DNA of 64,000 bases from Candidatus Pacearchaeota archaeon (GCA_041660485.1 JBAZWF010000001.1:410224-474223), one strand, 5' to 3'; positions 2,902 to 49,213 are shown, counted from the first letter of the stretch. The notes: a model not told the origin generated them from the letters alone. Numbers and translations: made by a program.

Positions 2902-3041
2902 GCTCCCGTAGCTCAGCCTGGATAGAGCGCTGGCCTTCTAAGTAAAAAGAACCGAGGGTTCTTCTTACGACATCTCCTTTTTGGAGAGGGCGAAGAAAAG
3001 AAGACAGTCAGAGGTCGCAGGTTCGAATCCTGTCGGGAGCA
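2902..3041 (+). tRNA. tRNA-Arg (anticodon UCU) with a 65-nt intron at 37/38
   Basis: Manual fold: acceptor GCTCCCG/CGGGAGC, D arm GCTC..GAGC, anticodon stem CTGGC/GTCAG, loop CT-TCT-AA, T arm GCAGG-TTCGAAT-CCTGT, discriminator A. Intron is 2941-3005. Confidence 0.85.
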
Positions 3042-3696: not shown

Positions 3697-4398
3697 ATGG
3701 ACTTATATGAATTAATGGGGTTTATAATTGGCGACGGTAATATTTATTATAGCAATAAATTTCAAGTCTATAGACTAGAATTATGTGGTAATTCTAAAGA
3801 AGATTATGATTATTTTCAAAAAATTTGTACATTTCTTGAAAAAGAAACTAGTAAGAAACCAATAATGTTTATAAGAAAAGAAAAAAAAGGAGAGAGTTTA
3901 AGAATCCAGTTTAATAACAAAAATTTTGTAGATAAATTAATAAATCTTGGATTACCTAAAGGTAAAAAGACTTTTAGCATAAAAATACCCGATAATTTAC
4001 TAAAAGAAGAAATTATGTTTTCTATATTAAAGGGACTATTTGAAGCCGATGGATGCTTATATTTTTCTAAATCAAAGAAATTAGAATATCCCTCTTATCC
4101 AAGAATTGAAATAAAAACTTCTAGTTCTGAATTAGTTCAACAAATTAATAATTTTTTAAATTCTCAAGGTTTTATAACATATATAAAAAATCCGTCTAGT
4201 GATAGAACATTTTCATTAGTATTAAGTGGAGAAAATATGCTTAAAAAATGGATTAATAAAATTGGTTTTGCAGGTCAAAAAAATCTAACTAAATATGAAA
4301 TATGGAAATCGAAAGGGTTTTATATACCTAATACTCCACTAAAAGATAGGTTAAACATGTGCGGGGATGGCACAGCGGCTACTGCGGTCGATTTTTAG
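3697..4398 (+). CDS. Double-motif LAGLIDADG homing endonuclease (free-standing)
   Basis: Two LAGLIDADG motifs: LMGFIIGDGNIY and ILKGLFEADGCLY, about 100 aa apart. The last 38 nt, including the stop, overlap the 5' exon of tRNA-Lys. Confidence 0.85.
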   Translation: MDLYELMGFIIGDGNIYYSNKFQVYRLELCGNSKEDYDYFQKICTFLEKETSKKPIMFIRKEKKGESLRIQFNNKNFVDKLINLGLPKGKKTFSIKIPDNLLKEEIMFSILKGLFEADGCLYFSKSKKLEYPSYPRIEIKTSSSELVQQINNFLNSQGFITYIKNPSSDRTFSLVLSGENMLKKWINKIGFAGQKNLTKYEIWKSKGFYIPNTPLKDRLNMCGDGTAATAVDF

Positions 4399-9213: not shown

Positions 9214-12200
9214 TTAATTAGAAGAACTCTCTTTATACTTGTCATAATATTGTAAAACCTTTTCAACATAATCATCTCGAATAACATTAAAACATACGTC
9301 AGAACGATATTGAGGGCAATTTTTCTCTAAATTTCCAATTCCATGATTATAAGCATATAATAAATTACTAATAAGATTAACTCTATAAACCTCTTGCAAA
9401 CATTTTAAATAACAAATTCCTAGATTAATATTTGCCGAAACATCAGTATTTGAAGGATTATCAATATTGTCCCACCCTGTAAAAACTAAACCTCTACAGT
9501 TATTAACTCTATTAAAACATTCTCCATTGCTAACTGCAACTGCCCCATAACCTCCACTATTTGTTATTTGCATTAAACCTAAAGCTCCTGCATTACTTTT
9601 ATCTTTTGGATTCCAATTACTTTCTTGTTTAACAACTGCTTTAGCTAAATTTGCATCAAAGTTTCTAGCACTAGCAATTTGTTCAACAATTGGAGAATAA
9701 GTTATTTCATTTTGAGAAGGAGTTGTAGTTGTTGTAGTTGTATCTTTTTTTGCAAGTGGTTCCCAAATAATGGTAATCGGATCTTTATTAAAATCCACAG
9801 TTGTCAAAATAAGTTTATTACCTGTAGCTGTTGCAGGATAACTATAAACCTCAGCAGTTTTTTTATCTTTATCTATCCATTTACTAAATATAACATTATG
9901 TTCTCCAGTAGCAGTATTTTTATTATAAATCTGAAGTAAATCTCCTGCTCTTAAATCATATTGTCCCCTAGAACAAGCATTACACGAAGAACAAGCAGGT
10001 TTTGCATATGAAGGATTAATATCATTTGTTGCAAAAACACAATTCTTATCAACACCTGCAACATAATAAACAGAAACAGCAACAGTAAAACAACTCAATT
10101 CCCCTTCACTTTTAGGACAATACTGATTATAAATGTCTTTTCCAAGTTGCCCTTTTAATTCTTCAGCAGCCTGAATTACTTTTGCACCTAAATCAGTTTC
10201 AGTTGTAGTTGTCCCACCCTTCACTTTACAACAAACTTTATCTGCATCTAAAATTTCTTTTTTATTTGTTAATTTATCAGTTATATCTTCTTCATTAGTA
10301 GCACACTTATCATCTTTTATATTTCCACCGGCAGTTTTACATTCACTTTCTCCACTTATCTCACTACTTACAGCATTTGGTTGAGTTGTAATAGGTAAAC
10401 TTTTCCAAATAACTAAAGATAAAACATGATAAACTCTTGCTCGATCAAAAAACATTCTTGCTTTTTGTAAAATATTTAAAGAATATTGGTTATCAAGAGT
10501 ATCAAGTTTTACAATAATAACTTTAGCATTTGCTTTTGCATCATCAACATTCATTGAATTTAATTTATTAATTTCCTCTTCAATTTTTCCAAACTCACTA
10601 GCTGCAATATTTACATCAAGTTCTTTAAATCCTGCAATTTGTTGGCTAAGCAAACCTGCTTGTTTATCTAATGTACTTATTGTTTCATTTAAAACTCCTG
10701 CATTTCCAGAAGTTATTGCATCTGCAATTGAACTTTTATCAAGCCAGCATCTTATTTTTGTATCTCCACAATATCCAACAGTTTGCCATCTTGCAGGTTC
10801 AGTTGTTCCACCCGGATTGTTTGTTGCACATATTCTTATTAATCCTCTACTATAAATTTGTGCAGTTGTTGCTTCTTGAACACCTGCTTGAAGATTTGGA
10901 TTAACAGTGGCTAATAGTCCCGGAGTTCCAGAAACACAACCTGCTTCAGTTGTTATTTGAGTATTTGTTGCCTGATCTTGTATATATTTATCTCTAATAT
11001 AATTTATAGCAAATGAAGTTGAAACTTGTTTAAATCCGCATTTTTCTTCTATTCCAATTCTCACACAAAGTTGTTGATAACCAGAAGGCCCTGTAAAGTC
11101 TTTTGTTTGATCAACATATCCTCCTTTTGCAACATAACCTGTATCAACATAACCATAGCCAGTTGTTGAATAAAGTGAAACTCCAGTTGCATCTTTCAAA
11201 TAAACTGAATACTGCGCACCTTCATCATTTCCTGCATAAATATGATAATAAACTTTATATTGTGAAACAGCAGGCACAGTTGAATCTGTTTGTTTAATTT
11301 CTTCAAACCAGGCACTAAATTGTGTTGGTGAATCAGGTTCAATTAATGTTTTAAATGAACTTGGATATTTTGTTGAAACAAATGATTTACAAACTTCAGT
11401 TCCAACTTCTGCTGTTGAACGAGTTTTAAATGATTTCATTGCATTAATTCCATAAACATTTGTAAAATAATTAATTGAACTTTGCATATTTGTCCATGCA
11501 GCTTGAACACTCATATATTCTCCTCCGCCTCTTGAACCTCCTCCAACTGCAAATTCTAAAAGTTTAGGAAGAATCACATTTAATAAAGGAGAAACTTGTT
11601 TCCAGAAAAATTCACAAGTATAAATTGCAGTTATTTCATCACATATTCCAACATATCTTCCAGTTTCAAGATTTTCCTGCAAACAATCACGTGAAGCTTT
11701 CAAAATTGAAACATAATTATCAACACCTGCCTGAACTCCAGTTAAACAAACCGGTATGAAAATTCCTTCTTTATAATTAGGCAGACATAAAAATAAACTT
11801 CCTGCAATTCCACTCTGAACAACATCATCAACATAATATTTTCCTCCTAAATTACATCTTGAGGCAGGACATATAACCGGATCACACATATTAAATAATA
11901 ATTTACAATCATCAGCAGACATAAAGTCTTGACATTGAGTTTCAGGATTATTTGTTGCAGCATTTCCAACTGTAATTTTTTGTCCTAAAATTGTTACATA
12001 TTTAATACTTGAACCATATTGATTTGCAGCTTGTTCAATTGCCTGCAAAGCACTCTGAACTTTTTGTGTAGCTTCTTTATCAGTTAAACCATAAAACTGA
12101 TTTAATTGTTGTCCAGTATTCATATTAAACTGCTGGCATAAATCATCACCTAATCCTGTATTAAATTCTTCTCGTCCATTTTTACCAACATTACAAAGCC

Positions 12201-15200
12201 AGAAACTTGAAACCGCTCCAGAATCTTGATATGTTTTAATATTTCCAAATGCAGCAATTGTTTGCTTTGTAGCCGCATACCATCCATTTTTCAAATCAAA
12301 CGGAACAACAGCAGGCATTCCTTTGTAAGGTTCAGTTTCATAATATTTTACTTTTGCATCTTTAAATGCATTATTATATGAAGATGAATCAAACTTTTCA
12401 AATAAAGGATGTTCAGTTTTAATTTTACTAATTAAAGTATTATCTGTAATTTGCTGATTATTTTTATCAAATATTTTACCTTCATCAATAATATATTGAG
12501 TTGTACTTCCAGGAGCTAATTTTAATGCAACAGAATAAACATTTCCATCAATCATAACTCCTTGAATATGAGTATTTGTTGGTAAACTAAATTGATTTGT
12601 AGCTTCAGTTACTGCTCCTGTATAAGGTTCAACATTTGCAATCCCTTGTTTATTTTTTTGAGCATTAACACTATAAGTTCCTGCAATTCCTAAAGTTCCT
12701 GCATTTGCAACTGTCTGTTTTATATTATCAGTTTCTGCCTCAATCTGTTTAATATTATTCATTGAGGTGTATAATTTTTGTTCTTGAATTTTCTTTAATG
12801 TTGAACTAGTATCGCTTGCAATATAACTATTATAAGCTAATCTTAATTCTCTTGTCTGATCATATGTTAATGTTTCAGAATCTAATTTTGATGCAATATC
12901 TTTTATGGCAATAGAATTTTGTCCTTTATCATCAGCTATACTTAAAGAACTTGTACTTAATTCAGTTTTCAACTTTTCAACATAAGCTGCATTTGCACTA
13001 TCTGCATCAATTGTCTTTCCGCCAAGAATGCCAGTAGTTTTTGTAAATGGTTCTTGAATAGCTTTAATTTCATTATTCACATTAGTTATTTGTTGAGATA
13101 ATAAATTAACATCTCTTTCTATGTTATCATTATTTTTAGAAAAACAATCATCTAAACTTGCATAAGGCCCGCCAGCCATTGTAGTTCCAGTCTTCGGCAT
13201 ACCTCCATTTGACATTGCATCAGCACAAAGTGCATTCCATCCAGAATTTGCTGCATTCATAACCTGAGTTCTTGCAATAGCTTTTCCACCTAAATTTGAA
13301 AATAAATTCTTAACTTGCAATACAGCAGATGTTGCAAAACAAGCAGTTTTCATTACTTTAACTGTTGAAGTTAATTTAGCAGAGATATTTTGCCATTTAG
13401 CAATTGATTCATTTAACCTTGCTATTCTTTCTTTTGTTTTTTCAGGAGATAACTTTATAGCTCTTTCTTCAATTCCAATTCTATAACTTACATTAGCATA
13501 TGAACCAAGATTTTTCACAACTGGTTGAATTTTTATTTTTGCAACACTTTTAACAGTTACTTCTTGTAAAATTAAATTTTCTCCACAAACCGGTTTTTGA
13601 ACTCCAATAACTAAACTTTCAGTTTGAGTTGTTAATTTTCCATTAGTATCATAACAATTTCCAATTACTTTAGCTCCTTCATCAGTAAAACTATCTAATT
13701 GAATATTTGTTTTTTGTTTTTTAGTTCCATCTGTTTGAGTAACTGAACTAGGAGAAATAATATATTCTTTAGCTTCACTTAATATTACTGGATTTCCATT
13801 AAGCATAAATTTGACCTTGCTTAAATCTTCTCCAACATTATAAATGGATTTTAATGTAACAACGTGTTTTTGCCCAGAAAGCTCAAAAACAAATGATGCT
13901 TTGCTATTATCAATATTTATGTCTTGAATCCCATAAGGTAATTCATTATATTTCGATTTATATAAGGCTAAAATTTCTTCTGCAACTTTTCCTTTATTTG
14001 TACTTACAGCAAGATTATATGCATTTTGCAAAGAAACTTTTCCATAAGTATCTCCATTTGAAGAATCTGATTTTTCATATTCAACATCTCCATAAGTTTC
14101 ACTTACAGATTTATATCCATCAACAGCTAAATTAAAGTTATTTTCAAAATCTCCACTTCCAGTATCAATACTAATTGCTCCAGTATAATCTGAAAATAAA
14201 ATATCCTTGCCAATAAAATTAACAGAATCTCCTTTTTTTATTATTGCAATAGCATATTGTTTATTGTATGTATAAACATTGCTTTTAAAATCAGTATTTA
14301 AAAGACTTAATGCATAATCATTTAATTTTTTCTTGAGCTCTTCACTAAATATAGTTGTTTGAGGTAATGAAACTAAAATTAAAAATGGCGCTTTATCTTT
14401 TGAACTAACTCCTGTTGATGCAAAATAAGTATTATTGTTATCTCCATTATATAATAAACTTCCAACAGAATATCCATCATTACTTGAACTATCAAATGTA
14501 ATTAAAGCACTTTTAACTCCAAGCTCTAAAACAAATGGTTTTCTTCCACTACTTGTCTGACAATCTCCTCTTACAATTCCACTGCTTCCACCACTTGATT
14601 CAATTTTATTAACCTTACAAATATTATCTGCAAATACCCCTCCTACACCTTCATAAACATCATATTCATCACTATCAAAAGTTAATTTTGCACTTTTTTG
14701 TGCACTTAGTGAATCAGAATAAGTAATTGTATATCCTGCATTACAATAAAATCCAGGTAAATATTGTTCAGATGAAGATTTTCCTCTTGAAACTTCAAAC
14801 GAACTTACTTTATGATTTACATCACTATAAACAGAACCTCTAACAACACCACTATCAACATATTCAACTCTTAAAAATCCTTTTCCATTCATAAACACAA
14901 ATTCATTATATCTCTGTTGCCATTGTTCCTCTGTTAAAACCGGAATTAGTTTTTCATTAATTCCCATTCCAAAAGCAACCGGAGCATCATAAGTTATTTT
15001 AGCAGTTAAATTTCCTGAAATAACTTTAGTTAAATTATTTTCATTTGGTTGTTGTTTTAATACAATAACTGCATATCCAATATTATCGATTGTTGGAAAT
15101 CCATTTTTGCCTTTTGATGTAGATAATATTGTTTTAGTAGGTTGATAAAAAGTAACACCTGTAACACCTACAGGAGTTTTTCCACTATAACTAAAACTAA

Positions 15201-15573
15201 TTGATTTAATTTCTTCTGGATTTACTGCAGGATTAATTTGTATTGCTTGCAACTTGCAAAAAACCGGAACATTTTGTTCAGCAAGCAAATCACTTCTTAC
15301 CACAGCCGGAGTACAACCGCCAGGAGAAATTTGAACTATAAAATCCTGTCTTGCTAAACACATCTCACGATTTGCAGTTGGATTTCCTCCATATAAATAA
15401 GGAAATAAAACCGAATTACTTCCTGAAAATCCAGGTTGATAGTATTGAGGATTTGAAAAAGATGCACTACTCCCTCCAGAAGAATATTCTCCTCCAGTGC
15501 TTCCATAAAATTCAGCACTAACAAAAAATACCATGCTTAAAGTTAATAACAAAACTAATATTTTACGAATCAT
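9214..15573 (-). CDS. Giant secreted protein (2119 aa) with a C-terminal SLT lytic-transglycosylase domain, preceded by a candidate papain-fold (NlpC/P60/CHAP-like) module
   Basis: Signal peptide MIRKILVLLLTLSMVFFVSA. SLT motifs AVVKQESNWNP, GLMQI and AYNHG in the last ~168 aa (nt ~9217-9720). Upstream are ELSCFTVAVSVYY ... AGDLLQI..GEHNVIFSKW (Cys/His spacing, inference), a poly-Thr linker, and a Cys-rich and coiled-coil middle. Confidence 0.85.
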   Translation of the reverse strand: MIRKILVLLLTLSMVFFVSAEFYGSTGGEYSSGGSSASFSNPQYYQPGFSGSNSVLFPYLYGGNPTANREMCLARQDFIVQISPGGCTPAVVRSDLLAEQNVPVFCKLQAIQINPAVNPEEIKSISFSYSGKTPVGVTGVTFYQPTKTILSTSKGKNGFPTIDNIGYAVIVLKQQPNENNLTKVISGNLTAKITYDAPVAFGMGINEKLIPVLTEEQWQQRYNEFVFMNGKGFLRVEYVDSGVVRGSVYSDVNHKVSSFEVSRGKSSSEQYLPGFYCNAGYTITYSDSLSAQKSAKLTFDSDEYDVYEGVGGVFADNICKVNKIESSGGSSGIVRGDCQTSSGRKPFVLELGVKSALITFDSSSNDGYSVGSLLYNGDNNNTYFASTGVSSKDKAPFLILVSLPQTTIFSEELKKKLNDYALSLLNTDFKSNVYTYNKQYAIAIIKKGDSVNFIGKDILFSDYTGAISIDTGSGDFENNFNLAVDGYKSVSETYGDVEYEKSDSSNGDTYGKVSLQNAYNLAVSTNKGKVAEEILALYKSKYNELPYGIQDINIDNSKASFVFELSGQKHVVTLKSIYNVGEDLSKVKFMLNGNPVILSEAKEYIISPSSVTQTDGTKKQKTNIQLDSFTDEGAKVIGNCYDTNGKLTTQTESLVIGVQKPVCGENLILQEVTVKSVAKIKIQPVVKNLGSYANVSYRIGIEERAIKLSPEKTKERIARLNESIAKWQNISAKLTSTVKVMKTACFATSAVLQVKNLFSNLGGKAIARTQVMNAANSGWNALCADAMSNGGMPKTGTTMAGGPYASLDDCFSKNNDNIERDVNLLSQQITNVNNEIKAIQEPFTKTTGILGGKTIDADSANAAYVEKLKTELSTSSLSIADDKGQNSIAIKDIASKLDSETLTYDQTRELRLAYNSYIASDTSSTLKKIQEQKLYTSMNNIKQIEAETDNIKQTVANAGTLGIAGTYSVNAQKNKQGIANVEPYTGAVTEATNQFSLPTNTHIQGVMIDGNVYSVALKLAPGSTTQYIIDEGKIFDKNNQQITDNTLISKIKTEHPLFEKFDSSSYNNAFKDAKVKYYETEPYKGMPAVVPFDLKNGWYAATKQTIAAFGNIKTYQDSGAVSSFWLCNVGKNGREEFNTGLGDDLCQQFNMNTGQQLNQFYGLTDKEATQKVQSALQAIEQAANQYGSSIKYVTILGQKITVGNAATNNPETQCQDFMSADDCKLLFNMCDPVICPASRCNLGGKYYVDDVVQSGIAGSLFLCLPNYKEGIFIPVCLTGVQAGVDNYVSILKASRDCLQENLETGRYVGICDEITAIYTCEFFWKQVSPLLNVILPKLLEFAVGGGSRGGGEYMSVQAAWTNMQSSINYFTNVYGINAMKSFKTRSTAEVGTEVCKSFVSTKYPSSFKTLIEPDSPTQFSAWFEEIKQTDSTVPAVSQYKVYYHIYAGNDEGAQYSVYLKDATGVSLYSTTGYGYVDTGYVAKGGYVDQTKDFTGPSGYQQLCVRIGIEEKCGFKQVSTSFAINYIRDKYIQDQATNTQITTEAGCVSGTPGLLATVNPNLQAGVQEATTAQIYSRGLIRICATNNPGGTTEPARWQTVGYCGDTKIRCWLDKSSIADAITSGNAGVLNETISTLDKQAGLLSQQIAGFKELDVNIAASEFGKIEEEINKLNSMNVDDAKANAKVIIVKLDTLDNQYSLNILQKARMFFDRARVYHVLSLVIWKSLPITTQPNAVSSEISGESECKTAGGNIKDDKCATNEEDITDKLTNKKEILDADKVCCKVKGGTTTTETDLGAKVIQAAEELKGQLGKDIYNQYCPKSEGELSCFTVAVSVYYVAGVDKNCVFATNDINPSYAKPACSSCNACSRGQYDLRAGDLLQIYNKNTATGEHNVIFSKWIDKDKKTAEVYSYPATATGNKLILTTVDFNKDPITIIWEPLAKKDTTTTTTTPSQNEITYSPIVEQIASARNFDANLAKAVVKQESNWNPKDKSNAGALGLMQITNSGGYGAVAVSNGECFNRVNNCRGLVFTGWDNIDNPSNTDVSANINLGICYLKCLQEVYRVNLISNLLYAYNHGIGNLEKNCPQYRSDVCFNVIRDDYVEKVLQYYDKYKESSSN

Positions 15574-17450
15574 CTTAAAGTCACTCCTAAAATTTTATTA
15601 TTAATTAATTCATAATTTTGTTGAAGTTGATCAAGACTTGAAGGATTTGGAAGTGACCCAACAGAAATATCTAATGAAGTTGCAGATTTAATATTATCTT
15701 CAAGAAGATATTCACTTGTTTTTCCTCCTGCAGTAAGAGCATTTGTTAAAGTTTCTCCAGGAATTGTAATATCAAAGCATTTTTCACTTGTTTTTCCAAA
15801 GAATCCCATTATTCCAGAATCTAAAACACTTACACACTGTCTTGATGTGCTTGAAGGTATAGTTAATGAAGCTCCGCTAAATACCTGCATACTAATATTA
15901 TAATATCCTTCACTTAATTTTATCTGCTTCTGTTGAGGATAAACCAGAGTAAATTTATTTTTATCACTTTCAAAATTAATTATTGCAATATCATTTTCTC
16001 CTCCAGTAAATTCGATTCCATTAATGATAACTCTAACATTAATGTCATAACTTTTATCCATAGGAATATTAACAACTCCAGCTTCATTTGTTGAAATAAT
16101 ATTTTCCTGAGTAATATATCCTTCAGCAGTTGCAGTTACTTTTCCATTAATGCATTGAGGAAATTCAGTTGTTAATTTTGCATCTTGTCCACTTAATTTA
16201 GTTGTTCCAATATTACATTTTGTATTAAAACAATTATAACTTACATCTGCTTCAACAGGAGCAAGAGTTTTCAAATCATAAGTATAAACATCCATTTGAG
16301 TATTTTTATAATTGCAAATTTGTTCTATATTATCCTGATTATCAAGTGCTTGTCCATTAATTGCTTTCCTTGGAACATTTTTATCAAGAACAACTGAAAC
16401 CGGGAATTGGAAAAGTTCCCTACCATCATAAATTTGAACTAATACCGGATAATAAACATCATATACATAATGATAAGGCACATAACAAAATCCAATTATT
16501 CCCATTCCTTGTTCTAATCCAACTGGCTCTGCAATTAAAAGATTATTATCTGCAGGCCAAACTTCAATTCTTGTTGGCCAATCAGAATTATACATAAAAT
16601 TAACAGAATCTTCTGTTTTTAATCCATCGACAACAAAATACTTATTATCTTTATCATTAAGATTATAATAATTTCCTTCTAATTTTATTGCTGCAATATT
16701 TGCTGATAATCCTAACTTGATATCATTTGCAACATCCTGAGCTTTCCATATTTTTGGAGCACAGCTTAATTCTGTTCCAGTAACCGGAGCATAATTATAT
16801 AATGCATCAACAGAATAATTTTCTAAAAACGCATCACTTAATTCTTTATCATAAATATCTCTTGCAGTACTGTAAAACTTTCCAAATTTGCTGTCTACTT
16901 CAACTTCATAAGAAGATTTTGAAGAAGAAACATTTCCTTTTGCAACTCCAATATTTTCATTAACATTTACTCTTACACTTCCATCAAATATTGTTACACT
17001 TGTTTCTGCATCTCCAGTCTTAACAGTATATCCTCTAGAAACAAATTCATTAAAATTACATTTCGCAACTTCTTCATTTAAATAATTAGCTAATTGTGTT
17101 TCAATTTCAGTTTTTGATGGCACCTGCTCTTCAACAAGATTATTTCCAGAAACATAATACCAATACGGAACCGGATTACCTAAAAAATCTAACTGTGATG
17201 AAAACGGAGCATATTCACTTCCAGGTTTAAACTCAGGCACCTCAATATATCCTCCTTGCGAACCTGCAATTCTTAATCCCTCTAAAGTTTTCTGTTTTAT
17301 GCAATCATCAAAATACTGATAAACTTCATTTGTTTCAGGTGCAGTAGTACCAGTAAAAATCTTATCTCTAAAAGTATAAATTAAAATCCCTGCTGCAATT
17401 ATAATCACTGCAAATATTATGAAAATAGTAACTTGTCCCTTCTTGCTCAT
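15570..17450 (-). CDS. Large extracellular protein with a class III (prepilin-type) signal peptide
   Basis: The ORF track starts at GTG 17462. ATG at 17450 gives MSKKG/QVTIFIIFAVIIIAAGILIY (KG then Q, followed by a hydrophobic helix), preceded by GGAGGT. The stop overlaps the start of the 2119-aa gene (ATGA). Confidence 0.65.
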   Translation of the reverse strand: MSKKGQVTIFIIFAVIIIAAGILIYTFRDKIFTGTTAPETNEVYQYFDDCIKQKTLEGLRIAGSQGGYIEVPEFKPGSEYAPFSSQLDFLGNPVPYWYYVSGNNLVEEQVPSKTEIETQLANYLNEEVAKCNFNEFVSRGYTVKTGDAETSVTIFDGSVRVNVNENIGVAKGNVSSSKSSYEVEVDSKFGKFYSTARDIYDKELSDAFLENYSVDALYNYAPVTGTELSCAPKIWKAQDVANDIKLGLSANIAAIKLEGNYYNLNDKDNKYFVVDGLKTEDSVNFMYNSDWPTRIEVWPADNNLLIAEPVGLEQGMGIIGFCYVPYHYVYDVYYPVLVQIYDGRELFQFPVSVVLDKNVPRKAINGQALDNQDNIEQICNYKNTQMDVYTYDLKTLAPVEADVSYNCFNTKCNIGTTKLSGQDAKLTTEFPQCINGKVTATAEGYITQENIISTNEAGVVNIPMDKSYDINVRVIINGIEFTGGENDIAIINFESDKNKFTLVYPQQKQIKLSEGYYNISMQVFSGASLTIPSSTSRQCVSVLDSGIMGFFGKTSEKCFDITIPGETLTNALTAGGKTSEYLLEDNIKSATSLDISVGSLPNPSSLDQLQQNYELINNKILGVTLR

Positions 17451-17729
17451 TTTACTTTTCACTTTTCTTACCTCCTATTTTTATTTTTATCAGTTCCATA
17501 ATCTCGCTGTTAATATCTTTATCAATAGTTTCTTTGAACTTTTCCCAAAGTTTCTCATCTTCTATAAGAAGCAAGTATTTTTTCACTTTTTCATTTCCTC
17601 TTTTAATTAAACACCCAAACAAACAATAAAGTATATAAAAAAACGCGCTATTTAAATCTTATTATTAAGTTAGTAAGTAAGTTACTTAGTAAGAGAAAGA
17701 AAAAGAAATGCCAAATTACTTAATCAAAC

Positions 17730-18530
17730 TTACTTTTCTAACTTTTCTATTGTCTTCTTATAACAATCAAAAGCCTCTTGTAATCCTTTTACCTGCTGGC
17801 ACATTGTACTTGATAGTGATTTAATATCTTCTTTTTTACGTTTTCCCATCATTTCATTCTTTTTAGCTCTATAAATTTCATATGCTCCGCTCAGAACATT
17901 TGTTGCAACTACCGCTCCAAGATAAGAATTTACAATATTTCTTGAATTAGGTTGTGTAAAAGGAAACATATTATTAGCCATAATTCCTGCAAGAAAATGA
18001 AATGCTCCAGAATATAAAGAATACATAATTTTAAAAGATTCATAATTTCCGAAAGCAGGATTAATATCAAATGCTTTATTTTCTTTTTCTAATATATCAA
18101 GATTTTTTCTTATATGTGTTGGTGCAAAATATATTGATTCTACAACTGATTTTGCAAAATTATATGTGCCTTTTCCAATTTCTTTTGTAACATTATATGT
18201 ATCTTTTCCAATTTCTCCAACTACTTCATACCATTTTGGTTCTCTTAAATTTCCATTTAAACTTAAATTTCCTTCTGTACCCACCATACTTTCTAAATCA
18301 TTTTTTTTCTTTTCTTTTTCTAAAAGAGTTTCACACGGATCTTCTGCATATTCTATTAATTTCTTTTCAATTTCGCCTAGAAACTCACGATTACTCTTAA
18401 GTTCTTCTTCATATGAAATGTTTGTATAACTATCCTGTCCAGTTTCATGAAGAGCATAGTCTTCAGTTTCATAAGGCACAGTTGATGTTTGTGCTCTTTT
18501 ATTTGCTTGAATTTTTGTTTGTGTTTCCAT
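17730..18530 (-). CDS. Hypothetical protein, tandem paralog A (266 aa)
   Basis: N-terminal ~110 aa are homologous to the 18552-19229 product. Internal duplication IGKDTYNVTKE/IGKGTYNFAKS. Hydrophobic Gly/Ala-rich C-terminal region LGAVVATNVLSGAYEIYR. Confidence 0.6.
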   Translation of the reverse strand: METQTKIQANKRAQTSTVPYETEDYALHETGQDSYTNISYEEELKSNREFLGEIEKKLIEYAEDPCETLLEKEKKKNDLESMVGTEGNLSLNGNLREPKWYEVVGEIGKDTYNVTKEIGKGTYNFAKSVVESIYFAPTHIRKNLDILEKENKAFDINPAFGNYESFKIMYSLYSGAFHFLAGIMANNMFPFTQPNSRNIVNSYLGAVVATNVLSGAYEIYRAKKNEMMGKRKKEDIKSLSSTMCQQVKGLQEAFDCYKKTIEKLEK

Positions 18531-18551: not shown

Positions 18552-19229
18552 TTAAGATTTTCTTTCTTCTGCTCTTAATTTATCTTTGTATTCCTCCATC
18601 ATTTTATTTTTCTTATTTCTGTAAATTTCATATGCTCCGCTTAGTAAATTAGCGCCAACTACTGCTGCAAGGTAAGCATTTGCTTTAGGAGATGATCCTG
18701 CTCCGCTTAAAGCATTTCCTGCAGAATACATTCCTAAAAAAACATTACCTAATATTGAAGTTCCTGAAATTATACATCTCATTATTTCTTCAGTTGCACT
18801 ATCTTCTTCATCCTCATTATGTCTTTTATCATCAGATTTTCTCATTGAAGTTGGAATAAAATATATACTTTCTACAACTGCTTTTGCAACATTATATGTA
18901 TCTTTTCCAAGTCCTTTAACAACATCGTAAAAACCAGGTTCTCTTAATTTTCCATTTGAACTTAAATTTCCTTCTGTACCGGCTATACTTTCTAAATCAT
19001 TTTTTTTCTTTTCCTGCCCAAGCATAGTTTCACACGGATCTTCTGCATATTCTATTAATTTCTTTTCAACTTCGCCTAGAAACTCACGATTACTCTTAAG
19101 TTCTTCATCATATGAAATGTTTGTATAACTATCCTGTCCAGTTTCATGAAGAGCATAGTCTTCAGTTTCATAAGGCACAATTGATGTTTGTGCTCTTTTA
19201 TTTGCTTGAATTTTTGTTTGTGTTTCCAT
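18552..19229 (-). CDS. Hypothetical protein, tandem paralog B (225 aa)
   Basis: Only 3 nt of the first ~205 nt differ from paralog A. C-terminus AAVVGANLLSGAYEIYR. Confidence 0.6.
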   Translation of the reverse strand: METQTKIQANKRAQTSIVPYETEDYALHETGQDSYTNISYDEELKSNREFLGEVEKKLIEYAEDPCETMLGQEKKKNDLESIAGTEGNLSSNGKLREPGFYDVVKGLGKDTYNVAKAVVESIYFIPTSMRKSDDKRHNEDEEDSATEEIMRCIISGTSILGNVFLGMYSAGNALSGAGSSPKANAYLAAVVGANLLSGAYEIYRNKKNKMMEEYKDKLRAEERKS

Positions 19230-28607: not shown

Positions 28608-30113
28608 TTAGCAAGAGAAACTATATGCTGCATTTTGGGTTCCACCTACATAACTTTGATAAGTTATTGATGTAAGTTTTATTTTAGCTCCGTCAGATAA
28701 TGTAAATAGTTGTCCATTAATAAGCTGTCCAGTACTTTCTCCATTAACTGTAAACATAGCTTTTAATGAGTCAAGATCCATTAATTTAACTGCATAAGTT
28801 TTACCTTTACATACGAGATTCTTAGTCTGAACTTCATTTAATGTATCTGTTAATGTTGAAGTCAAATCAGTATTACACTTTCCAGCATCACATCCGTTTG
28901 CACAAATAGCTATTTCATAGCTTAAAGTTTGTGCTGTTGCAGAAGGGCATTTAAACTCTAGTAAGGTAGTTGGTCCTAAACAAATATCTTCTCCAGCATA
29001 TAATTTATTGCTAGAAGTTACTTCTGTCTTTCCTTTAACAAATGAAGGCGAAACCATTGCTCTATCACTATCAATACAACTTGTAGCTATACAAGCTTTA
29101 TTTAAACAACCATTTTCACAATTTATTTCTTGTTTAATTACTTGATCTCCGTTTACATTATATAACAAATAATTTGTTACTATCTGTAAATCTAAAACAT
29201 CTGCTTTTTTATCTCCATTTAAATCAGCCCTATTACATTCAGAAGTTATAGAACCTGAAGGCAAGCATGTATCTCTAAGGAATGTAACATCTGCTTCATC
29301 TACAACTCTATCTTTGTTTATATCATACATTTGACTGTAAAATATATTTACATTACAGTTATATTCAACTAATTTTTTACCATCACATACATCAGTAAAT
29401 GTTGTTTTTTCTGTTTTTGTATTAGTTGCAGTTACCACGCCAGTTACCTCATCTTTAGTACATGTTGGTCCAGCAATGCTACAATAAAATGAAGCATATT
29501 CAACTCCATTTGATGCTTTAATTTTTGAATTTTTAATTACTCCTGGACAAACAGTTGATACTGAAGTAAATTTCCCATCTTGACAATAATACTCTATAAT
29601 ATTATTTCCAGAATACGAGTCTGCATAAACTTCCATAGATGCACCACTTCCTAATTCAACAACTCCTGCACGAAGAGGATAGTTTCCATCTGTATCTTTA
29701 CAAACTGGAGAAATACATTGTCCAACTTTTTCTACAGTAGTAGTTCCCATCTGTACAGTTTTTTCTTCACATCCTACCGGGCACGGAACTGTTACAGTCA
29801 TAAGTGTATTAACATCTACAGTTTTTTCCTGTACTAAACAAATTCCAAGAAATTTTCGGCCAGGACAATATTTTGATGGAACTTTTGAGATATAAGTTTC
29901 AGTAACTCCACTTGAAGCTACTCCTTGATTTGTACAAAGATCTTTATTTATTGCACCATTCCAAACAACTCCGGCAAAATACTTATTATTTCCATTATCA
30001 CTTTCTTGCCATTCAGTAGGAGACAAACTAACTATTGCATCTTCAGCAATAACTCCAGCACTCATTAAAACAACTAATGCGAGAGAAATTCCTAATATTA
30101 AATTCTTTTTCAT
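28608..30113 (-). CDS. Secreted Cys-rich repeat protein with a dockerin-like double Ca-binding repeat
   Basis: Signal peptide MKKNLILGISLALVVLMSAGVIA. DINKDRVVDEADVTFL and DLNGDKKADVLDLQIVTNYLL resemble dockerin type I repeats. Recurrent ..EY.C../..GC..G.C modules. Strong SD GGAGGT upstream. Confidence 0.6.
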   Translation of the reverse strand: MKKNLILGISLALVVLMSAGVIAEDAIVSLSPTEWQESDNGNNKYFAGVVWNGAINKDLCTNQGVASSGVTETYISKVPSKYCPGRKFLGICLVQEKTVDVNTLMTVTVPCPVGCEEKTVQMGTTTVEKVGQCISPVCKDTDGNYPLRAGVVELGSGASMEVYADSYSGNNIIEYYCQDGKFTSVSTVCPGVIKNSKIKASNGVEYASFYCSIAGPTCTKDEVTGVVTATNTKTEKTTFTDVCDGKKLVEYNCNVNIFYSQMYDINKDRVVDEADVTFLRDTCLPSGSITSECNRADLNGDKKADVLDLQIVTNYLLYNVNGDQVIKQEINCENGCLNKACIATSCIDSDRAMVSPSFVKGKTEVTSSNKLYAGEDICLGPTTLLEFKCPSATAQTLSYEIAICANGCDAGKCNTDLTSTLTDTLNEVQTKNLVCKGKTYAVKLMDLDSLKAMFTVNGESTGQLINGQLFTLSDGAKIKLTSITYQSYVGGTQNAAYSFSC

Positions 30114-30401: not shown

Positions 30402-30525
30402 TAGCCCTGCCAGGATTCGAACCTGGGTCACAAGCTTTCTCCGATGTTCGCTCGCGATAATATTAATGGGTCTCGCAAACAACCTCGCCAAAGGCTCGTA
30501 GATTTGACCGCTGTCCTACAGGGCT
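30402..30525 (-). tRNA. tRNA-Gln (anticodon UUG) with a 51-nt intron at 37/38
   Basis: Reverse complement: acceptor AGCCCTG/CAGGGCT, anticodon stem CGAGC/GCTTG, loop CT-TTG-G[intron]A, T arm CCAGG-TTCGAAT-CCTGG, discriminator A. The D stem is only 3 bp. Confidence 0.75.
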
Positions 30526-40691: not shown

Positions 40692-41372
40692 TTAAATCTC
40701 TCCAGTTAAACCTTCTTTTTCAGCATCAGCAACGGTACTTATAATCTCTCTATCTTGTTTTGTTTTTTCCTTAGCCTCTTCTTCTTTTTTCTTTTCAATT
40801 AATTCTTTAGAAGCTTTTCCAAGTTTTAGCATTAAAAATCCAATAAGAAGAGCTATTGCCAAAGAAGTCCATGCAATCCAAGTATTTGAAATCATAAATG
40901 AAAGTAAATCCACTGCTTGTTTAATAACTCCTGAAACTCCAATTAAACAAGTAATAATAAATGCTGCAATAAACCCAAAAACTTTATTGCCAAGTATTGC
41001 ACCTACAGGATTAAATAAAAATAAAAATAATATAAGCCAAATTAATACTGCAAATACAAATGCCCAAGATAAAGAATAATCTACACCTAAAATTAAATTA
41101 AATAATGGATTTAATTTTGTAAGAAAATCACTAATTGCTAATAATACCTGCCCAAGAGGATATTTCTCTAATATCTTTGTCCATTCCTGAGTTAAATAAG
41201 TTGTAGAAGCATTTTGTATATCTTCAGGATTCTGAGGCAACTCTTGAGGATTTATACCTATTCCTAAAGGATCTTCAATATTTTCAGGATTAACATTAAC
41301 CTGCGCATTTACAAAAGAAATAGCAAACAAGCTACAAGTCAATAAAAATAAAATAAATAAACTTTTTTTCAT
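40692..41372 (-). CDS. Signal-peptide polytopic membrane protein (distant member of paralog family 1)
   Basis: Signal ..FAISFVNAQ, 4-5 TMs, K/E-rich C-terminal tail. Confidence 0.5.
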   Translation of the reverse strand: MKKSLFILFLLTCSLFAISFVNAQVNVNPENIEDPLGIGINPQELPQNPEDIQNASTTYLTQEWTKILEKYPLGQVLLAISDFLTKLNPLFNLILGVDYSLSWAFVFAVLIWLILFLFLFNPVGAILGNKVFGFIAAFIITCLIGVSGVIKQAVDLLSFMISNTWIAWTSLAIALLIGFLMLKLGKASKELIEKKKEEEAKEKTKQDREIISTVADAEKEGLTGEI

Positions 41373-41417
41373 TATTAATCTAATACTAAAGTGTTTTTAA
41401 AATTAATTGAATTATTT

Positions 41418-42194
41418 TTAACCACCAAATGCTTCAAGATTTTCTTTTTCTAAATTTAATAATGCTTTTCTTCTTTGAGCAGCATTCATTCCTTTTTCTT
41501 TAACAGCAGTCAATTTTCCTCTAAAAACAAATGTTCTTATTCCAGGAATAAGTATTAAAATTAATATTCCAGCAATTATTGCCCCCCAATAAGGAATTGT
41601 TTGAGCCCACCAACCACCCTCTGCAGGAGTTGAAGCTAATTTATATATAAATAATGTAAAATAATAAACAATATAAAATATCCAAGTAACTCTTGCAATT
41701 AATAAACTTTCTGAAACCCAAACTGTAAAATATAATAAGATTGCAAATGGAATTACAGTTAATATTGCTGCACCCATTGCACTATATTGTAAAGTAATTG
41801 CTTCAACAAAATTTGCAGGCAAATAAATAAATGCAAGTAAAGTTATTATCAAAGCAACTGCTCCAGAAAATACTCTTGCCCATCTTTTTTCACCTACTTT
41901 AAAAATTTGGCCAAGAACTGAATAAAGAACAATCCAAAGTAAAGCTCCTAAAAGTACCGAACTTAAAGTTCTTGGAGTAAGTTGAATAGTAGATAAAAAA
42001 CCAGTTATCCCATTGGCTGCAGAACCTGCAACTGCACCTAAAGCACTATTAGAAAGATCCATAGTTGATAATTCATCTCCTGATCCGTCATCCCATTCTC
42101 CCGGGACATAAGCTGGTTGAGCAGAAACAAAATTAGCAACAGCTAAAAATACAAACATAAACAATACACTAGCCCAAATATATTTTATTTTCAT
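41418..42194 (-). CDS. Polytopic membrane protein, paralog family 1
   Basis: Signal ..ANFVSAQ. Conserved block LLAFIYLPANFVEAITLQYSAMGAAILTVIPFAILLYF. Basic coiled C-terminal tail. Confidence 0.55.
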   Translation of the reverse strand: MKIKYIWASVLFMFVFLAVANFVSAQPAYVPGEWDDGSGDELSTMDLSNSALGAVAGSAANGITGFLSTIQLTPRTLSSVLLGALLWIVLYSVLGQIFKVGEKRWARVFSGAVALIITLLAFIYLPANFVEAITLQYSAMGAAILTVIPFAILLYFTVWVSESLLIARVTWIFYIVYYFTLFIYKLASTPAEGGWWAQTIPYWGAIIAGILILILIPGIRTFVFRGKLTAVKEKGMNAAQRRKALLNLEKENLEAFGG

Positions 42195-43045
42195 TTTAAT
42201 TTTAATTCCTTTTCTAATTGTTTAATTTCTGTTCTTATCTCCGCTTTTCTAGCCATCGTTGTGGTATTAAGTAAAAGCTCTCTTTGTAAATTTTCAATTT
42301 CTACCGTTATTCTTCCTCTTTGACGACTAGTTAATTTTTCATAAGCTATTGCGCCTCTTCCCCTAAACCAAAGTTTATAAATTAATCCATCGAAAAAGAA
42401 TAAAAATCCGCAGCCAATAATTGCTAACCAATAAATATATCCCCAAGGTTTTGCATAATTTTGGTACCAAAGAACAAGAAATACTGCACCAAAAACAACC
42501 CAAGCAGCTCTTCTAAATGTTCCTCCCTTAATTGTTGTATAAACAAAATATCCATATATAACAAAAGGAATTATAATAGTTATTGAAGCAGCTAAAGCAC
42601 TTGAGGGAAGGGCTAATTGTCTAATTAAATCATTAGGTAAAAATCTAACACCCAATATTGCAACAATTGCTCCAATTAAAAACCTCAACCATATTTTATC
42701 ATCTCCTGAAAAAATTGAAGCAGCTACAACATTTAATACAGCCATAACAATTAATAAAACTAATAAGAAAACTAAAATTTTAGGAAAAGTAACTGAAGCT
42801 TCTGCAGCACCGATACTTGTATCTCCAAGCAAAGCATTAAATAATGGTTTTCCAACTTCCTGAACTCCGTTAATAAATCCTCCAAGACCTTTAACAATCA
42901 CATTTGTAGGAGTATTAACATCTACGCCTTCATCCCAAGTACTTCCTGTTTGCGCAAAAGCAAAATTAATTGAAAGAGCAAAAATAGAAATCACAAATAT
43001 AGATAATAAACATAAAGATAAAATCCTTTCACTTCTCTTTTTCAT
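42191..43045 (-). CDS. Polytopic membrane protein, paralog family 1
   Basis: Signal ..INFAFAQ. Block ILGVRFLPNDLIRQLALPSSALAASITIIIPFVIYGYF. 4-nt overlap with the downstream paralog. Confidence 0.55.
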   Translation of the reverse strand: MKKRSERILSLCLLSIFVISIFALSINFAFAQTGSTWDEGVDVNTPTNVIVKGLGGFINGVQEVGKPLFNALLGDTSIGAAEASVTFPKILVFLLVLLIVMAVLNVVAASIFSGDDKIWLRFLIGAIVAILGVRFLPNDLIRQLALPSSALAASITIIIPFVIYGYFVYTTIKGGTFRRAAWVVFGAVFLVLWYQNYAKPWGYIYWLAIIGCGFLFFFDGLIYKLWFRGRGAIAYEKLTSRQRGRITVEIENLQRELLLNTTTMARKAEIRTEIKQLEKELKLK

Positions 43046-44873: not shown

Positions 44874-45716
44874 CTAAAAAAATCCCCAGTTAGAATTATA
44901 GAAATATTTTATTGTAATAACAATTAAAAATGAAATTAAAAAGCTTGGTGAAAATGGAACTCCTTGCTTTATAAGTATTTTCTTTTTATAGTGCTTTTTA
45001 ATAAGTTCAACTTGCTCTTCATTTAATCCTTCCCAATAAGGTTCAATTTTAACATTTCCTACATGTATTGTTTCAGCAATCCAGTCTCCAATTGTAACTT
45101 TAGTTGGAGAAGTATAAACCATCATATATGATTGTTCAACTGATTTTGTATAAAGATATAAGAAAGGAGTTACAAAAATAAGAAGTGCAATAAGTGAGAG
45201 TATAATATTATTTAATAAAATTGAAATAATAACTATCGCAACTGCAGATATAAGAAGAACTATAATAGTTGTTTTAATTTTATTTGCCTGCTTTCTAAAT
45301 TCTTTGACAAATCTCTGTCTATTAATTAAAACTAACCCAAAGCTGTAACATAAAGTGTAAATTGCACCTGCGAATAAAAGCCCTATAGTAAATACAAAAA
45401 ATATTAGAGTATTTTCATAAAAGTTATTTGCAAATGGAAGTATTGTCCCTAAAGCAATAAGTAGTTTTGCATCTCCGCCTGCAAATAATCTCATGTAATA
45501 AAATAAATTACCTAATATAAAAAATACTAAAAGCCCATAGAGTCCAAAAAAGAAATAATTAAAATTATTTGTGAAAATAGAATAAAACAATCTTGCTGCA
45601 AGTGCAAATATAATTAGGCTAAAATTAAGCCAATTTGCAATTTCTCTTTGCCTAAAGTCTTGAACAACTGCAAATGTCAGCCATATTAATGCTAATATAA
45701 TCAGGAAGTCAATCAT
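44874..45716 (-). CDS. Archaeal prepilin/preflagellin peptidase (A24 family, PibD/FlaK-like)
   Basis: Polytopic. First catalytic Asp in VVQDFRQREIANW, second in FAGGDAKLL. Confidence 0.8.
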   Translation of the reverse strand: MIDFLIILALIWLTFAVVQDFRQREIANWLNFSLIIFALAARLFYSIFTNNFNYFFFGLYGLLVFFILGNLFYYMRLFAGGDAKLLIALGTILPFANNFYENTLIFFVFTIGLLFAGAIYTLCYSFGLVLINRQRFVKEFRKQANKIKTTIIVLLISAVAIVIISILLNNIILSLIALLIFVTPFLYLYTKSVEQSYMMVYTSPTKVTIGDWIAETIHVGNVKIEPYWEGLNEEQVELIKKHYKKKILIKQGVPFSPSFLISFLIVITIKYFYNSNWGFF

Positions 45717-46645: not shown

Positions 46646-47110
46646 TCAGCAAGTTATTGCAGGACAAGTTTCTACAACCGGAGAAGTCCATTTAGAACCT
46701 TCAACAGCAGGAGTATATGTTCCTCCGCTTGCTTTACAAGCTGCATCAGTACTTAACTCACTAACTGAATTATCAATTTGTCCATCTTTCATACAAGTCG
46801 CAGGTTGTGCAATAATTACTTTTGTTAATTGAATACAAGTAACTCCAGCTACTTTTGTTTTGCTATCAAAAACAATTGTTCTCTGAGTTGTACAAAAATC
46901 ATATTTAGCACCTGTTGAACATGCAACCTGACACGCACTTTTAATTGTATCAACATTTACCTGTCCCCCGCCTAAGTTAAATATTTTATCAAATAAATTT
47001 CCCCAACCCTGTGAAAATCCAAATACTAAAAACACAAGTACAAGTACGGCAAGAATAATAACTACAATAGTTCCAATAGTCATTTCTGCCCCTTTTTTAT
47101 TCTTAATCAT
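46646..47110 (-). CDS. Type IV pilin-like protein (class III signal peptide), last gene of the locus
   Basis: MIKNKKG/AEMTIGTIVVIILAVLVLVFLVF. The track start is GTG 47116. Cys-rich globular C-terminus. Confidence 0.7.
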   Translation of the reverse strand: MIKNKKGAEMTIGTIVVIILAVLVLVFLVFGFSQGWGNLFDKIFNLGGGQVNVDTIKSACQVACSTGAKYDFCTTQRTIVFDSKTKVAGVTCIQLTKVIIAQPATCMKDGQIDNSVSELSTDAACKASGGTYTPAVEGSKWTSPVVETCPAITC

Positions 47111-47151
47111 TTTCACTATATTATTAGAAAGATTTAATTTATAAATGTTTC

Positions 47152-47625
47152 TTAAGCTGACTCAAAATAACTTATATATTCTCTGCTAAGTTCAAACACT
47201 TTTTCACCTTTTTTGTTATAAAACTTGCTGTCAATCTTTATAGGAATACCAATACTAAACTTACCATTAACTAAAGAAACATCTTTTTCAGCAAGTTTTC
47301 CCTTAAACTGCTCAAGTTCTCCAAAAAGATATTTTCCATTTTGATCCCGATAATAATCTAAATTTGAATTAAAATTATTAATAAATATTTCAACAGAACC
47401 CGCATTTTTAGCAGAATTAGAAACTAAATCTTGCAGATAAAAATCAATTAATTTTTCTCTTGCAGTCAAATCTTCAAAAATTTTAGAACTGTAAATATCT
47501 CCACTAATTTGATTATTTCTTTGAATCATTACAAACAATGTAAAGGTAGTCAACGTAATTGTTGCTAAAACTAATAATAAAATTGCTATTGGCACTCCAT
47601 CACCTTTTTTATTAGATACCAGCAT
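47152..47625 (-). CDS. Pilin-like protein
   Basis: MLVSNKKG/DGVPIAILLLVLATITLTTFTLF. Confidence 0.6.
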   Translation of the reverse strand: MLVSNKKGDGVPIAILLLVLATITLTTFTLFVMIQRNNQISGDIYSSKIFEDLTAREKLIDFYLQDLVSNSAKNAGSVEIFINNFNSNLDYYRDQNGKYLFGELEQFKGKLAEKDVSLVNGKFSIGIPIKIDSKFYNKKGEKVFELSREYISYFESA

Positions 47626-48265
47626 TTAGCCCTCCAACAAACATTTTAACTTTCACAGTTTTTCTAACATTTCCATTATCTAAAAGCCAAAGTTCAGAAT
47701 ATCTTGTTTCAGGTTTAAAATAACTTGAACTTAAAGTTCCGCATAAATCTACATAATAACCAACACCTCTATGAAAAATATTTGTATCATCTGCAGAAAT
47801 GGTATCTTTACATTTTTTTCCAATTATTGCCTGAGGATTTTCTATTCTTTTTCCATCAAGATTATGATATACACAAACAAGATAGCAATCATCATAAACT
47901 CTATCAAAAAAACCAACTGCACTTTCATAGAACAATTTGTATGTTGCCCCCTCTTTTTCTATATTTTCTAAAGAAGGAGTTGAACTATAAAATTTATCAT
48001 CAACATTAATCGATAAATCTTTAATCATCATCTTTTGTCCATTAAAATCAACAGGAGAATCAAATAATAATACTAAATTGCCTGTCAAAGTTGAATCTTT
48101 TAATTGTTCTCCTTCATTAACAGTTATTTCCGGTCCAGAAAAAGATAATTTATTTTTCAAAACAATAAATCCTAAAAAAAACATGAAAATAAATAAAATA
48201 ACAATTACAATTATCGTTGCTGCAAACCAGCTTATACCTGTTCCAATTGATGCTTTTTTATTCAT
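47612..48265 (-). CDS. Pilin-like protein
   Basis: MNKKA/SIGTGISWFAATIIVIVILFIFMFF. Confidence 0.55.
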   Translation of the reverse strand: MNKKASIGTGISWFAATIIVIVILFIFMFFLGFIVLKNKLSFSGPEITVNEGEQLKDSTLTGNLVLLFDSPVDFNGQKMMIKDLSINVDDKFYSSTPSLENIEKEGATYKLFYESAVGFFDRVYDDCYLVCVYHNLDGKRIENPQAIIGKKCKDTISADDTNIFHRGVGYYVDLCGTLSSSYFKPETRYSELWLLDNGNVRKTVKVKMFVGGLNAGI

Positions 48266-48266
48266 T

Positions 48267-49174: not shown

Positions 49175-49213
49175 AAATTGTTAATAAATTTAACTAAAGA
49201 GGTTAATTATAGT

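Follow-up and report, generated by a model that had tools for sequence, protein, structure and literature searches.

A locus on the minus strand of a stretch of DNA of 64,000 nucleotides (nt) from a Candidatus Pacearchaeota archaeon (GCA_041660485.1, JBAZWF010000001.1:410224-474223; this whole stretch is hereafter the window) encodes, in the order of transcription, a conserved open reading frame (ORF) of 44 amino acids (aa), a 630-aa protein with a pilin-type N-terminus (B), and a giant secreted protein (A) whose C-terminus bears a lytic transglycosylase domain (SLT) of glycoside hydrolase family 23 (GH23) (Table 1). The window is archaeal, with a G+C content of about 30%, and includes the genes for TFIIB, the ribosomal proteins S3Ae and L44e, NDK, SRP54/FtsY and RadA; its source belongs to the DPANN archaea and has a very small genome. 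An original prediction, made on the same DNA, had taken A and B for a coupled pair directed against the wall of a host or prey cell. Its observations are confirmed and its interpretation is partly supported; absent from it was that the SLT domain is one of many interchangeable tails found on a body of 1720 aa.

Table 1. Features of the A-B locus, of the type IV filament locus in the same window, and of the small gene pairs in one relative (L001)
Feature	Position	Strand	Basis or remark
ORF A	9214-15573	minus	2119 aa; secreted protein with C-terminal enzymes
Sec-type signal peptide of A, MIRKILVLLLTLSMVFFVSA/EF	15508..15573	minus	sequence; sole hydrophobic segment of A
Carrier body of A (aa ~23-1740)	10354..15507	minus	conservation profile
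Hyper-conserved core of body (aa ~1050-1640)	10654..12426	minus	column identity 50-72%
Body-tail junction and Cys-rich linker (aa 1741-1794)	10192..10353	minus	homology among family members stops here
Cys/His module (aa 1795-1945), candidate triad C1828, H1892, D1901	9739..10191	minus	conservation
Poly-Thr linker DTTTTTTTP	9712..9738	minus	sequence
SLT (GH23) lytic transglycosylase domain (aa 1955-2119), catalytic E1984	9217..9711	minus	Pfam, PDB, NCBIfam, PHROG, AF2/Foldseek, motifs
ORF B	15570-17462	minus	630 aa; GTG start, in-frame ATG at codon 5
B N-terminus: short basic leader ...SKKG, Q, ~22-residue hydrophobic helix; putative A24 cleavage site	17373..17462	minus	motif conservation
Conserved 44-aa ORF (VKKYLLLIEDEKLWEKFKETIDKDINSEIMELIKIKIGGKKSEK)	17452..17586	minus	conserved directly upstream of B
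Mini pairs in relative's contig	L001:14707-21684		downstream of main pair; short B-like protein and overlapping secreted gene, twice
Peptidase_A24 prepilin peptidase	44874-45716	minus	Pfam E 4e-12
About eight consecutive pilin-like ORFs	46646-52745	minus	(N)KKG and hydrophobic-helix N-termini, same pattern as B
731-aa ORF, no Pfam match	53047-55242	minus	possibly membrane platform
T2SSE ATPase	56050-58308	minus	library match

The A-B operon and its inheritance

The two large genes lie on the minus strand at the coordinates given in the original prediction and are joined, as it had noted, by an ATGA overlap: at the junction TTAAG-ATGA-TTCGT the TGA of B overlaps the ATG of A by 4 nt, with an AGGAG upstream. 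Neither is a chance ORF: homologs number more than 500 for A and more than 1900 for B. The homologs of A are 1750-2600 aa long and all lie in assemblies labelled as Pacearchaeota, Woesearchaeota or Nanoarchaeota, while those of B are 44-64% identical, of a uniform 610-670 aa, and retain all 10 cysteines without exception. A pattern scan for B loci, taking one genome per species, identified at least 579 species loci encoding a B relative, under Pacearchaeota, Woesearchaeota or Nanoarchaeota names with a few evident mis-binnings. In every one of the 81 retrieved loci with room downstream, a homolog of the A body follows B on the same strand, and the proposed pairing of the two genes thus extends throughout the sampled relatives. 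Further, a possible start of A lies no more than 20 nt from the stop of B in 66 of 83 loci, with the 4-nt overlap itself recurring in 31.

In 48 of 82 related loci the 44-aa ORF immediately precedes B, with 62-91% identity over about 37 aa, and it is more conserved (MKKYLLLIEDEKLWEKFK..DINSEI.ELIKKK) than either A or B. Its stop falls 1 nt before the ATG of B or overlaps the GTG of B. Pfam, NCBIfam and PHROG returned no match for it; on the basis of its strand-helix-turn-helix pattern it may be a ribbon-helix-helix regulator.

The genomic setting points to vertical inheritance as part of the core genome rather than to an island or mobile element, because the neighboring genes are conserved between the window and the contigs of relatives. 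The query locus is flanked by TFIIB, tRNA-Leu, TrmB, L44e, S3Ae and NDK. Three independently looked-up A homologs (L001-L003) all have B upstream, and their contigs share the neighbors of the window, with L44e/S3Ae/NDK on one side and TFIIB/S8e/LSM/RNase Z on the other. The next feature downstream of A in the window is a convergent tRNA-Leu, and no conserved downstream gene was found in L001-L003.

Carrier body and exchangeable tails of the A family

Homology among the relatives of A spans aa 1 to about 1720-1740 and then ends. Within this body, a conserved N-domain (aa 60-350) is followed by variable regions, a conserved helical segment (aa 690-850), the hyper-conserved core, at which conservation is highest (aa 1050-1640), and a helical end. 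The body contains about 30 cysteines, mostly invariant, the majority of which lie in the core. Comparison of the body with PDB sequences, Pfam, NCBIfam and PHROG returned no match outside the SLT domain. In an AlphaFold2 (AF2) model covering aa 1060-2119, the flanks of the core, which include an ApaG-like β-sandwich, and the SLT domain fold well, and Foldseek matches of this region against PDB and BFVD were limited to the SLT domain and that sandwich. The Cys-rich stretch of aa 1220-1415, the most conserved part of the carrier, is the worst part of the model, appearing as long helices with a predicted local distance difference test score (pLDDT) of 33-47; it may require partners, disulfides or the N-terminal half of A, or may change conformation.

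The region beyond the body behaves quite differently, with tails ranging from 0 to 800 aa that are extremely diverse and comprise more than 45 singleton types. A Pfam census (E<=1e-3) of 61 tails, those of 60 related loci and the query, recovered SLT in 11, Phage_lysozyme2 in 4, and Amidase_3, DUF2272 and Peptidase_M15_4 in 2 each, with single cases of GH3, Amidase_2, Glucosaminidase and SLT_2. No domain beyond murein hydrolases or candidates for such was detected in the census, and on these assignments every recognizable tail domain belongs to this functional class, a pattern which fits the attack on a bacterial wall proposed earlier. About two-thirds of the tails lack any recognizable domain. 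The cores closest to that of the query (65-71% identity) bear lysozyme2 with amidase, DUF2272, SLT, or lysozyme2, with the nearest relative carrying lysozyme2 and amidase in place of SLT. Differing tails occur even on cores that are 81-90% identical, and the tail class is independent of the body. Hence, close relatives swap unrelated C-terminal domains on a conserved carrier, as in polymorphic toxins, and by these comparisons the A family consists of a conserved carrier of about 1720 aa with an exchangeable C-terminal warhead. Two recurrent tail modules of unassigned family were also observed, one a repeated 'F.F.DG....N.YYRY....W.W' unit and the other a C-terminal 'KWT.ESAL..V....GKYSDNK.FVDEL..DGILTEKEY' domain; these were seen in the tails of P0103, P0108, P0114, P0116, P0080, P0064, P0097, P0045 and others.

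The SLT chemistry, like that of the amidase_2/3 and M15 families, is specific for murein containing N-acetylmuramic acid (MurNAc), and an archaeal envelope offers no obvious substrate for such murein-specific chemistry. The idea that the hydrolases serve the archaeon's own wall was considered and judged unlikely, because the tails are variable and many species lack them. Alternatively, the A-B complex might be a nutrient scavenger that digests the peptidoglycan of dead bacteria or debris and thereby supplies amino acids and amino sugars to an auxotroph. Pacearchaeota do lack amino-acid biosynthesis, with peptidoglycan of dead cells having been proposed as a source (PMC11537232), and the tails include the exo-acting GH3 and the M15 carboxypeptidase types. 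However, this leaves the giant carrier, the anchored partner and the rapid swapping of tails unexplained, and there are no uptake genes linked to the locus; accordingly, we consider it improbable.

In the query, the terminal domain is a genuine family-1 lytic transglycosylase of GH23 with intact catalytic motifs, as judged from concordant profile and structural comparisons. Pfam PF01464 matches aa 1964-2086 (E=1.1e-13; 51.2 bits against a cut-off of 21.3), PDB sequence matches include Slt70 and EmtA, and lytic transglycosylases were also matched in NCBIfam and PHROG. The motifs E1984-S1985, G1999-LMQ and A2074-YN-x-G are all present and are retained in 14-15 of 15 related SLT tails. The AF2 model has a pLDDT of about 85-96 over most of aa 1950-2119, with a dip in one loop, and displays the all-α fold of the goose-type lysozymes; Foldseek matches it to MltE, MltF, MltC and cod g-type lysozyme with probabilities of 0.97-1.0. 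The SLT domain claimed at the C-terminus of A is thus borne out by profile, catalytic residues and predicted fold alike. Its predicted activity is cleavage of the murein glycan with formation of 1,6-anhydroMurNAc.

The second element of the query tail is the Cys/His module, which, like the poly-Thr linker, is present as first described. An exhaustive hidden Markov model search yielded 202 relatives (E<=1e-3) as against 2 matches from a word-indexed homolog search with the module alignment. These relatives mostly lie at the C-termini of proteins of 2000-3100 aa, with some being short stand-alone proteins, and within the tails of other members of the family the position of the module differs, a distribution that identifies it as a genuine, recurrent and mobile domain. 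His1892 is invariant (54 of 54), while Cys1828 is retained in 50 of 51 and an Asp or Asn at position 1901, nine residues after the His, in 51 of 54; in the homolog P0059, Cys and His have been lost jointly. This conservation, together with the joint loss, is the behavior of a catalytic Cys-His-Asp/Asn triad, and the Cys, the His and the third polar residue occur in the papain-like order.

The assignment of the module to an established family is less direct. Pfam has no match for the query version, PDB profile searches with the module were empty, and a few relatives match below threshold (NLPC_P60, 21.3 bits against a cut-off of 23; Amidase_6, E 0.04). Alignment by hhalign with E. coli MepS, NlpC and MepH covers 30-34 columns (E 3-5e-4, probability 31-38%) and is limited to a GD(L)...H motif on a strand, in which the catalytic His is in register. 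The AF2 model has a pLDDT below 60 over the module, and its low-confidence order of helices followed by five strands, with the His starting the second strand, is compatible with a papain-like fold. Of the NlpC/P60-type peptidase proposed in the original prediction, the conserved Cys and His therefore stand, while the profile and structure comparisons reach no significant match to NlpC/P60 or CHAP; the module is plausibly a papain-like (NlpC/P60-like) peptidoglycan peptidase or amidase.

A glycan-cleaving lytic domain and a Cys-His peptidase-type domain are likewise united in a single secreted protein in CwlT, PrgK and TcpG, which are small proteins of Gram-positive conjugative elements with the muramidase placed N-terminal to the NlpC/P60 domain. 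This pairing, and the occurrence of 'phage tail lysozyme' domains in some tails, could be taken to mark the locus as the relic of a conjugative element or a virus, i.e., a CwlT/PrgK-type transfer hydrolase, a phage tape-measure protein or a tail lysin. However, in A the modules sit on a 1720-aa carrier in a chromosomal core locus, the NlpC/P60 membership of its Cys/His module is putative, and the domain order is reversed relative to CwlT. Moreover, synteny with the ribosomal, NDK, TFIIB and RNase Z genes is kept across species, PHROGs match the SLT domain alone with the body and B having no viral relative, and there are no type IV secretion system, conjugation or phage genes near the query locus. 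The likeness to the conjugative CwlT/PrgK/TraG hydrolases drawn earlier hence shrinks to the domain pairing, and a phage or conjugative origin, which we regard as very improbable, was rejected on the strength of the core-gene context and the lack of viral relatives of the body and B.

Given that A carries a Sec signal but itself lacks an anchor, and that flexible Cys-rich and poly-Thr linkers lie ahead of the enzymes, A could instead be a diffusible, secreted, archaeocin-like bacteriolysin, with the warhead being freed to kill neighbors without contact and B being a helper in secretion or maturation. The polymorphic tails, which resemble those of polymorphic toxins, would be in keeping with this, and killing of bacteria by peptidoglycan hydrolases of archaea, whose diversity is greatest in Nanoarchaeota, has been demonstrated (PMC12352652). 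Nevertheless, a 1720-aa body and an obligate anchored partner would be costly for a simple enzyme in a genome of less than 1 Mb, neither immunity nor a release protease is evident, and many tails lack a lytic domain. On this balance a free bacteriolysin appears unlikely.

Partner B, the type IV filament locus and other genes of the window

The sole hydrophobic segment of B is its N-terminus (MSKKGQVTIFIIFAVIIIAAGILIY), where a basic leader ending in Gly precedes a hydrophobic helix at the extreme N-terminus (MSKKG/QVTIFIIFAVIIIAAGILIY), as in class III (prepilin-type) signals. The consensus KKGQxTIF holds across 45 homologs. The window also encodes a type IV filament locus that includes both an A24 peptidase and an assembly ATPase (Table 1). 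The shared KKG motif of B and the pilin-like ORFs, together with the peptidase in the window, makes B a credible substrate of the A24 peptidase, predicted to be cut after KKG, and the pilin-type N-terminus attributed to B in the original prediction is upheld by the same evidence. A could then be mounted on a pilus or on B.

B has no meaningful match in Pfam, NCBIfam, PHROG or PDB sequences. Its AF2 model (pLDDT 82) displays the N-terminal helix, α/β domains and then a chain of β-sandwiches resembling a stalk, for which Foldseek returned weak multi-domain matches to Gram-positive pilins and adhesins, the S-layer stalk SlaB and transthyretin-like domains. Both A and B show a strong depletion of N-X-S/T glycosylation sequons relative to the number that their composition predicts (in A, 7 as compared with about 25; in B, 3 as compared with about 7), which is unusual for archaeal surface proteins.

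The adjacency of genes for a large secreted protein and an anchored β-sandwich stalk is a feature that A and B share with SlaA and SlaB of Sulfolobus, and here the two stand side by side in a universal core locus. Together with a Foldseek match of the B model to SlaB (8qox_B; E 7e-5, probability 0.99), this raises the alternative that A and B form a two-component surface layer in the manner of a SlaA canopy on a SlaB stalk, with the enzymatic tails being lineage-specific decorations. However, the TM-scores between B and SlaB are about 0.13-0.17, with matches confined to generic sandwich domains, and the anchor of B is N-terminal and prepilin-type as opposed to the C-terminal anchor of SlaB. 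Likewise, unlike SlaA and what is generally known of typical S-layer proteins, A is Cys-rich and enzyme-bearing, with a core identity of 65-70% and a body lacking detectable similarity to solved structures; its modelled half (aa 1060-2119) has no SlaA/SlaB-type match, and the sequons are depleted rather than enriched. A surface layer of this kind is thus a doubtful explanation of the locus.

The best, albeit indirect, support for a functional link between B and A comes from the relative L001, in which the main pair is followed downstream by two mini pairs. The first member of each is a protein of 271-274 aa with a KKGQ or KKAQ signal; against the B profile it aligns over positions 5-210, with E 1e-20 to 1e-24. 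The overlapping genes encode secreted proteins, one of 972 aa with PG_binding_1, Phage_lysozyme2 and Amidase_3 domains and one of 794 aa with a weak PG_binding_1 match alone, and the A body is absent from both. These mini pairs suggest that secreted proteins which bind or lyse the wall have the N-domain of B as a dedicated partner module.

Several other features of the window were noted in passing. Immediately upstream of the operon, on the minus strand, are the tandem paralogs 17730-18530 (266 aa) and 18552-19229 (225 aa), whose first ~100 residues are almost identical and whose C-terminal segments are both hydrophobic; neither has a match in Pfam or NCBIfam, and the pair looks like a recent duplication or gene conversion. 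Two Rfam tRNA hits, at 2902-3041 (140 nt) and 30402-30525 (124 nt), are unusually long, are absent from the ARAGORN output and probably contain introns; just downstream of the former lies a free-standing LAGLIDADG endonuclease ORF (3697-4398). Additionally, a dockerin type I domain is present on a secreted 501-aa protein (28608-30113, minus strand), and three consecutive signal-peptide proteins of unassigned function are encoded at 40692-43045 (minus strand). These last two sets enlarge the extracellular repertoire.

Proposed display of a wall-lytic warhead and relation to known systems

A family specific to Pacearchaeota and Woesearchaeota with proteins of up to 3000 aa (fam00969) was described by Castelle et al. 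2021 (PMC8204110), who cite earlier sightings (Rinke 2013, Castelle 2015), and the existence of large SLT proteins is reiterated by Vigneron et al. 2022 (PMC9723730) and in PMC10936187 and PMC11537232. The published family (PMC8204110, PMC9723730) has in common with A its lineage, size class, extracellular location, C-terminal SLT/GH23 domain and proposed binding and degradation of the bacterial wall. The query A is a member of this family, and the idea of an attack on the wall had hence already been published. The accessible text of these papers describes the SLT domain alone and not the at least nine alternative tail modules on a 1720-aa body. As far as the available portions of the literature go, no description was found of the polymorphism of carrier and warhead, the obligate partner B with its prepilin signal, the 44-aa ORF or the Cys/His module, and these appear unreported.

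The reading we somewhat favor is that the 'large lytic transglycosylase' locus of Pacearchaeota and Woesearchaeota is a three-gene, translationally coupled operon which displays a wall-lytic warhead at the cell surface. The small putative regulator would be encoded first, followed by B and then A. A would leave the cell via Sec, while B would be inserted via its prepilin-type signal, cleavable after KKG by the A24 peptidase of the genome, and would either remain anchored in the membrane or join a type IV filament, in both cases as a stalk of immunoglobulin-like domains. The ectodomain of B would hold or mature the 1720-aa disulfide-rich body of A at the surface, and the C-terminus of this carrier would present the exchangeable warhead on the flexible Cys-rich and poly-Thr linkers. 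In the query, the Cys-His module would probably cut the peptide stems, and the SLT domain the glycan of MurNAc and N-acetylglucosamine (GlcNAc), such that the two jointly open a local breach in the murein of a bacterium with which the archaeon is in contact. This might serve attachment, access to a host, or feeding on wall fragments.

A number of points weigh against this surface-display reading. The domain identities, the catalytic residues, the conservation of the operon and the polymorphism of the tails are observed, while the binding of A to B, the retention of A at the surface and the bacterial nature of the host or prey are inferred, and we know of no host for any Pacearchaeote. Wall lysis may not be a universal function of the family, because about two-thirds of the tails have no recognizable domain. 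The most conserved stretch of the carrier body is modelled with low confidence, and the peptidase assignment of the Cys/His module is tentative. Finally, the flexible linkers would also suit the proteolytic release of a soluble enzyme.

A broader version of surface display, which we advance more tentatively and do not hold to be probable as a whole, would regard the B-A pair and the pairs of B-like protein and effector as a system by which archaea display effectors, dedicated to that task and following the same logic as the polymorphic toxins that depend on contact. In it, a prepilin-signal adaptor would dock a conserved giant carrier on the surface or on a type IV filament, and the warhead would be swapped by recombination to match the wall chemistry of the bacterial host. 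The A family does share with the CdiB-CdiA, Rhs and LXG systems a conserved carrier of great length whose C-terminal effector varies and recombines independently of it, and cdiB-cdiA likewise has a partner gene of about 600 aa immediately upstream of the giant gene. However, there is no relationship in sequence or fold between these systems and A-B, with B being a multi-domain protein anchored through a prepilin signal as opposed to an Omp85 barrel, and their effectors are nucleases or pore formers as against the wall hydrolases among the A tails. A cognate immunity gene, as in polymorphic toxins, was not found in the inspected loci (the window and L001-L003); the archaeal producer presumably lacks murein itself. 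Another partial parallel is offered by the 'Archaeovorin' giants of the predatory Omnitrophota (bioRxiv 10.1101/2023.11.21.568195), which are also huge surface proteins of ultrasmall host-dependent cells with wall-degrading domains such as SLT; these, however, come from bacteria, exceed A 10-40 times in size, are mosaics of several enzymes and have no sequence relationship to it.

Returning to the proposed display of a wall-lytic warhead by A and B, both the carrier body and B are good structural targets, being large and highly conserved proteins of no known fold. The locus also supplies reagents, namely the warhead domains for assays of activity and specificity, and B with A for localization. 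Among uncultured archaea, the Pacearchaeota and Woesearchaeota rank with the most widespread, and to our knowledge a host has been identified for none of them. A universal, syntenic surface locus whose recognizable ends are murein-specific is the strongest genomic pointer to bacterial partners. If the tail type tracks the wall chemistry of the host, it could serve as a guide for co-culture attempts, and if the locus is indeed an effector-display system, the tail type would predict the host range of uncultured Pacearchaeota and Woesearchaeota.

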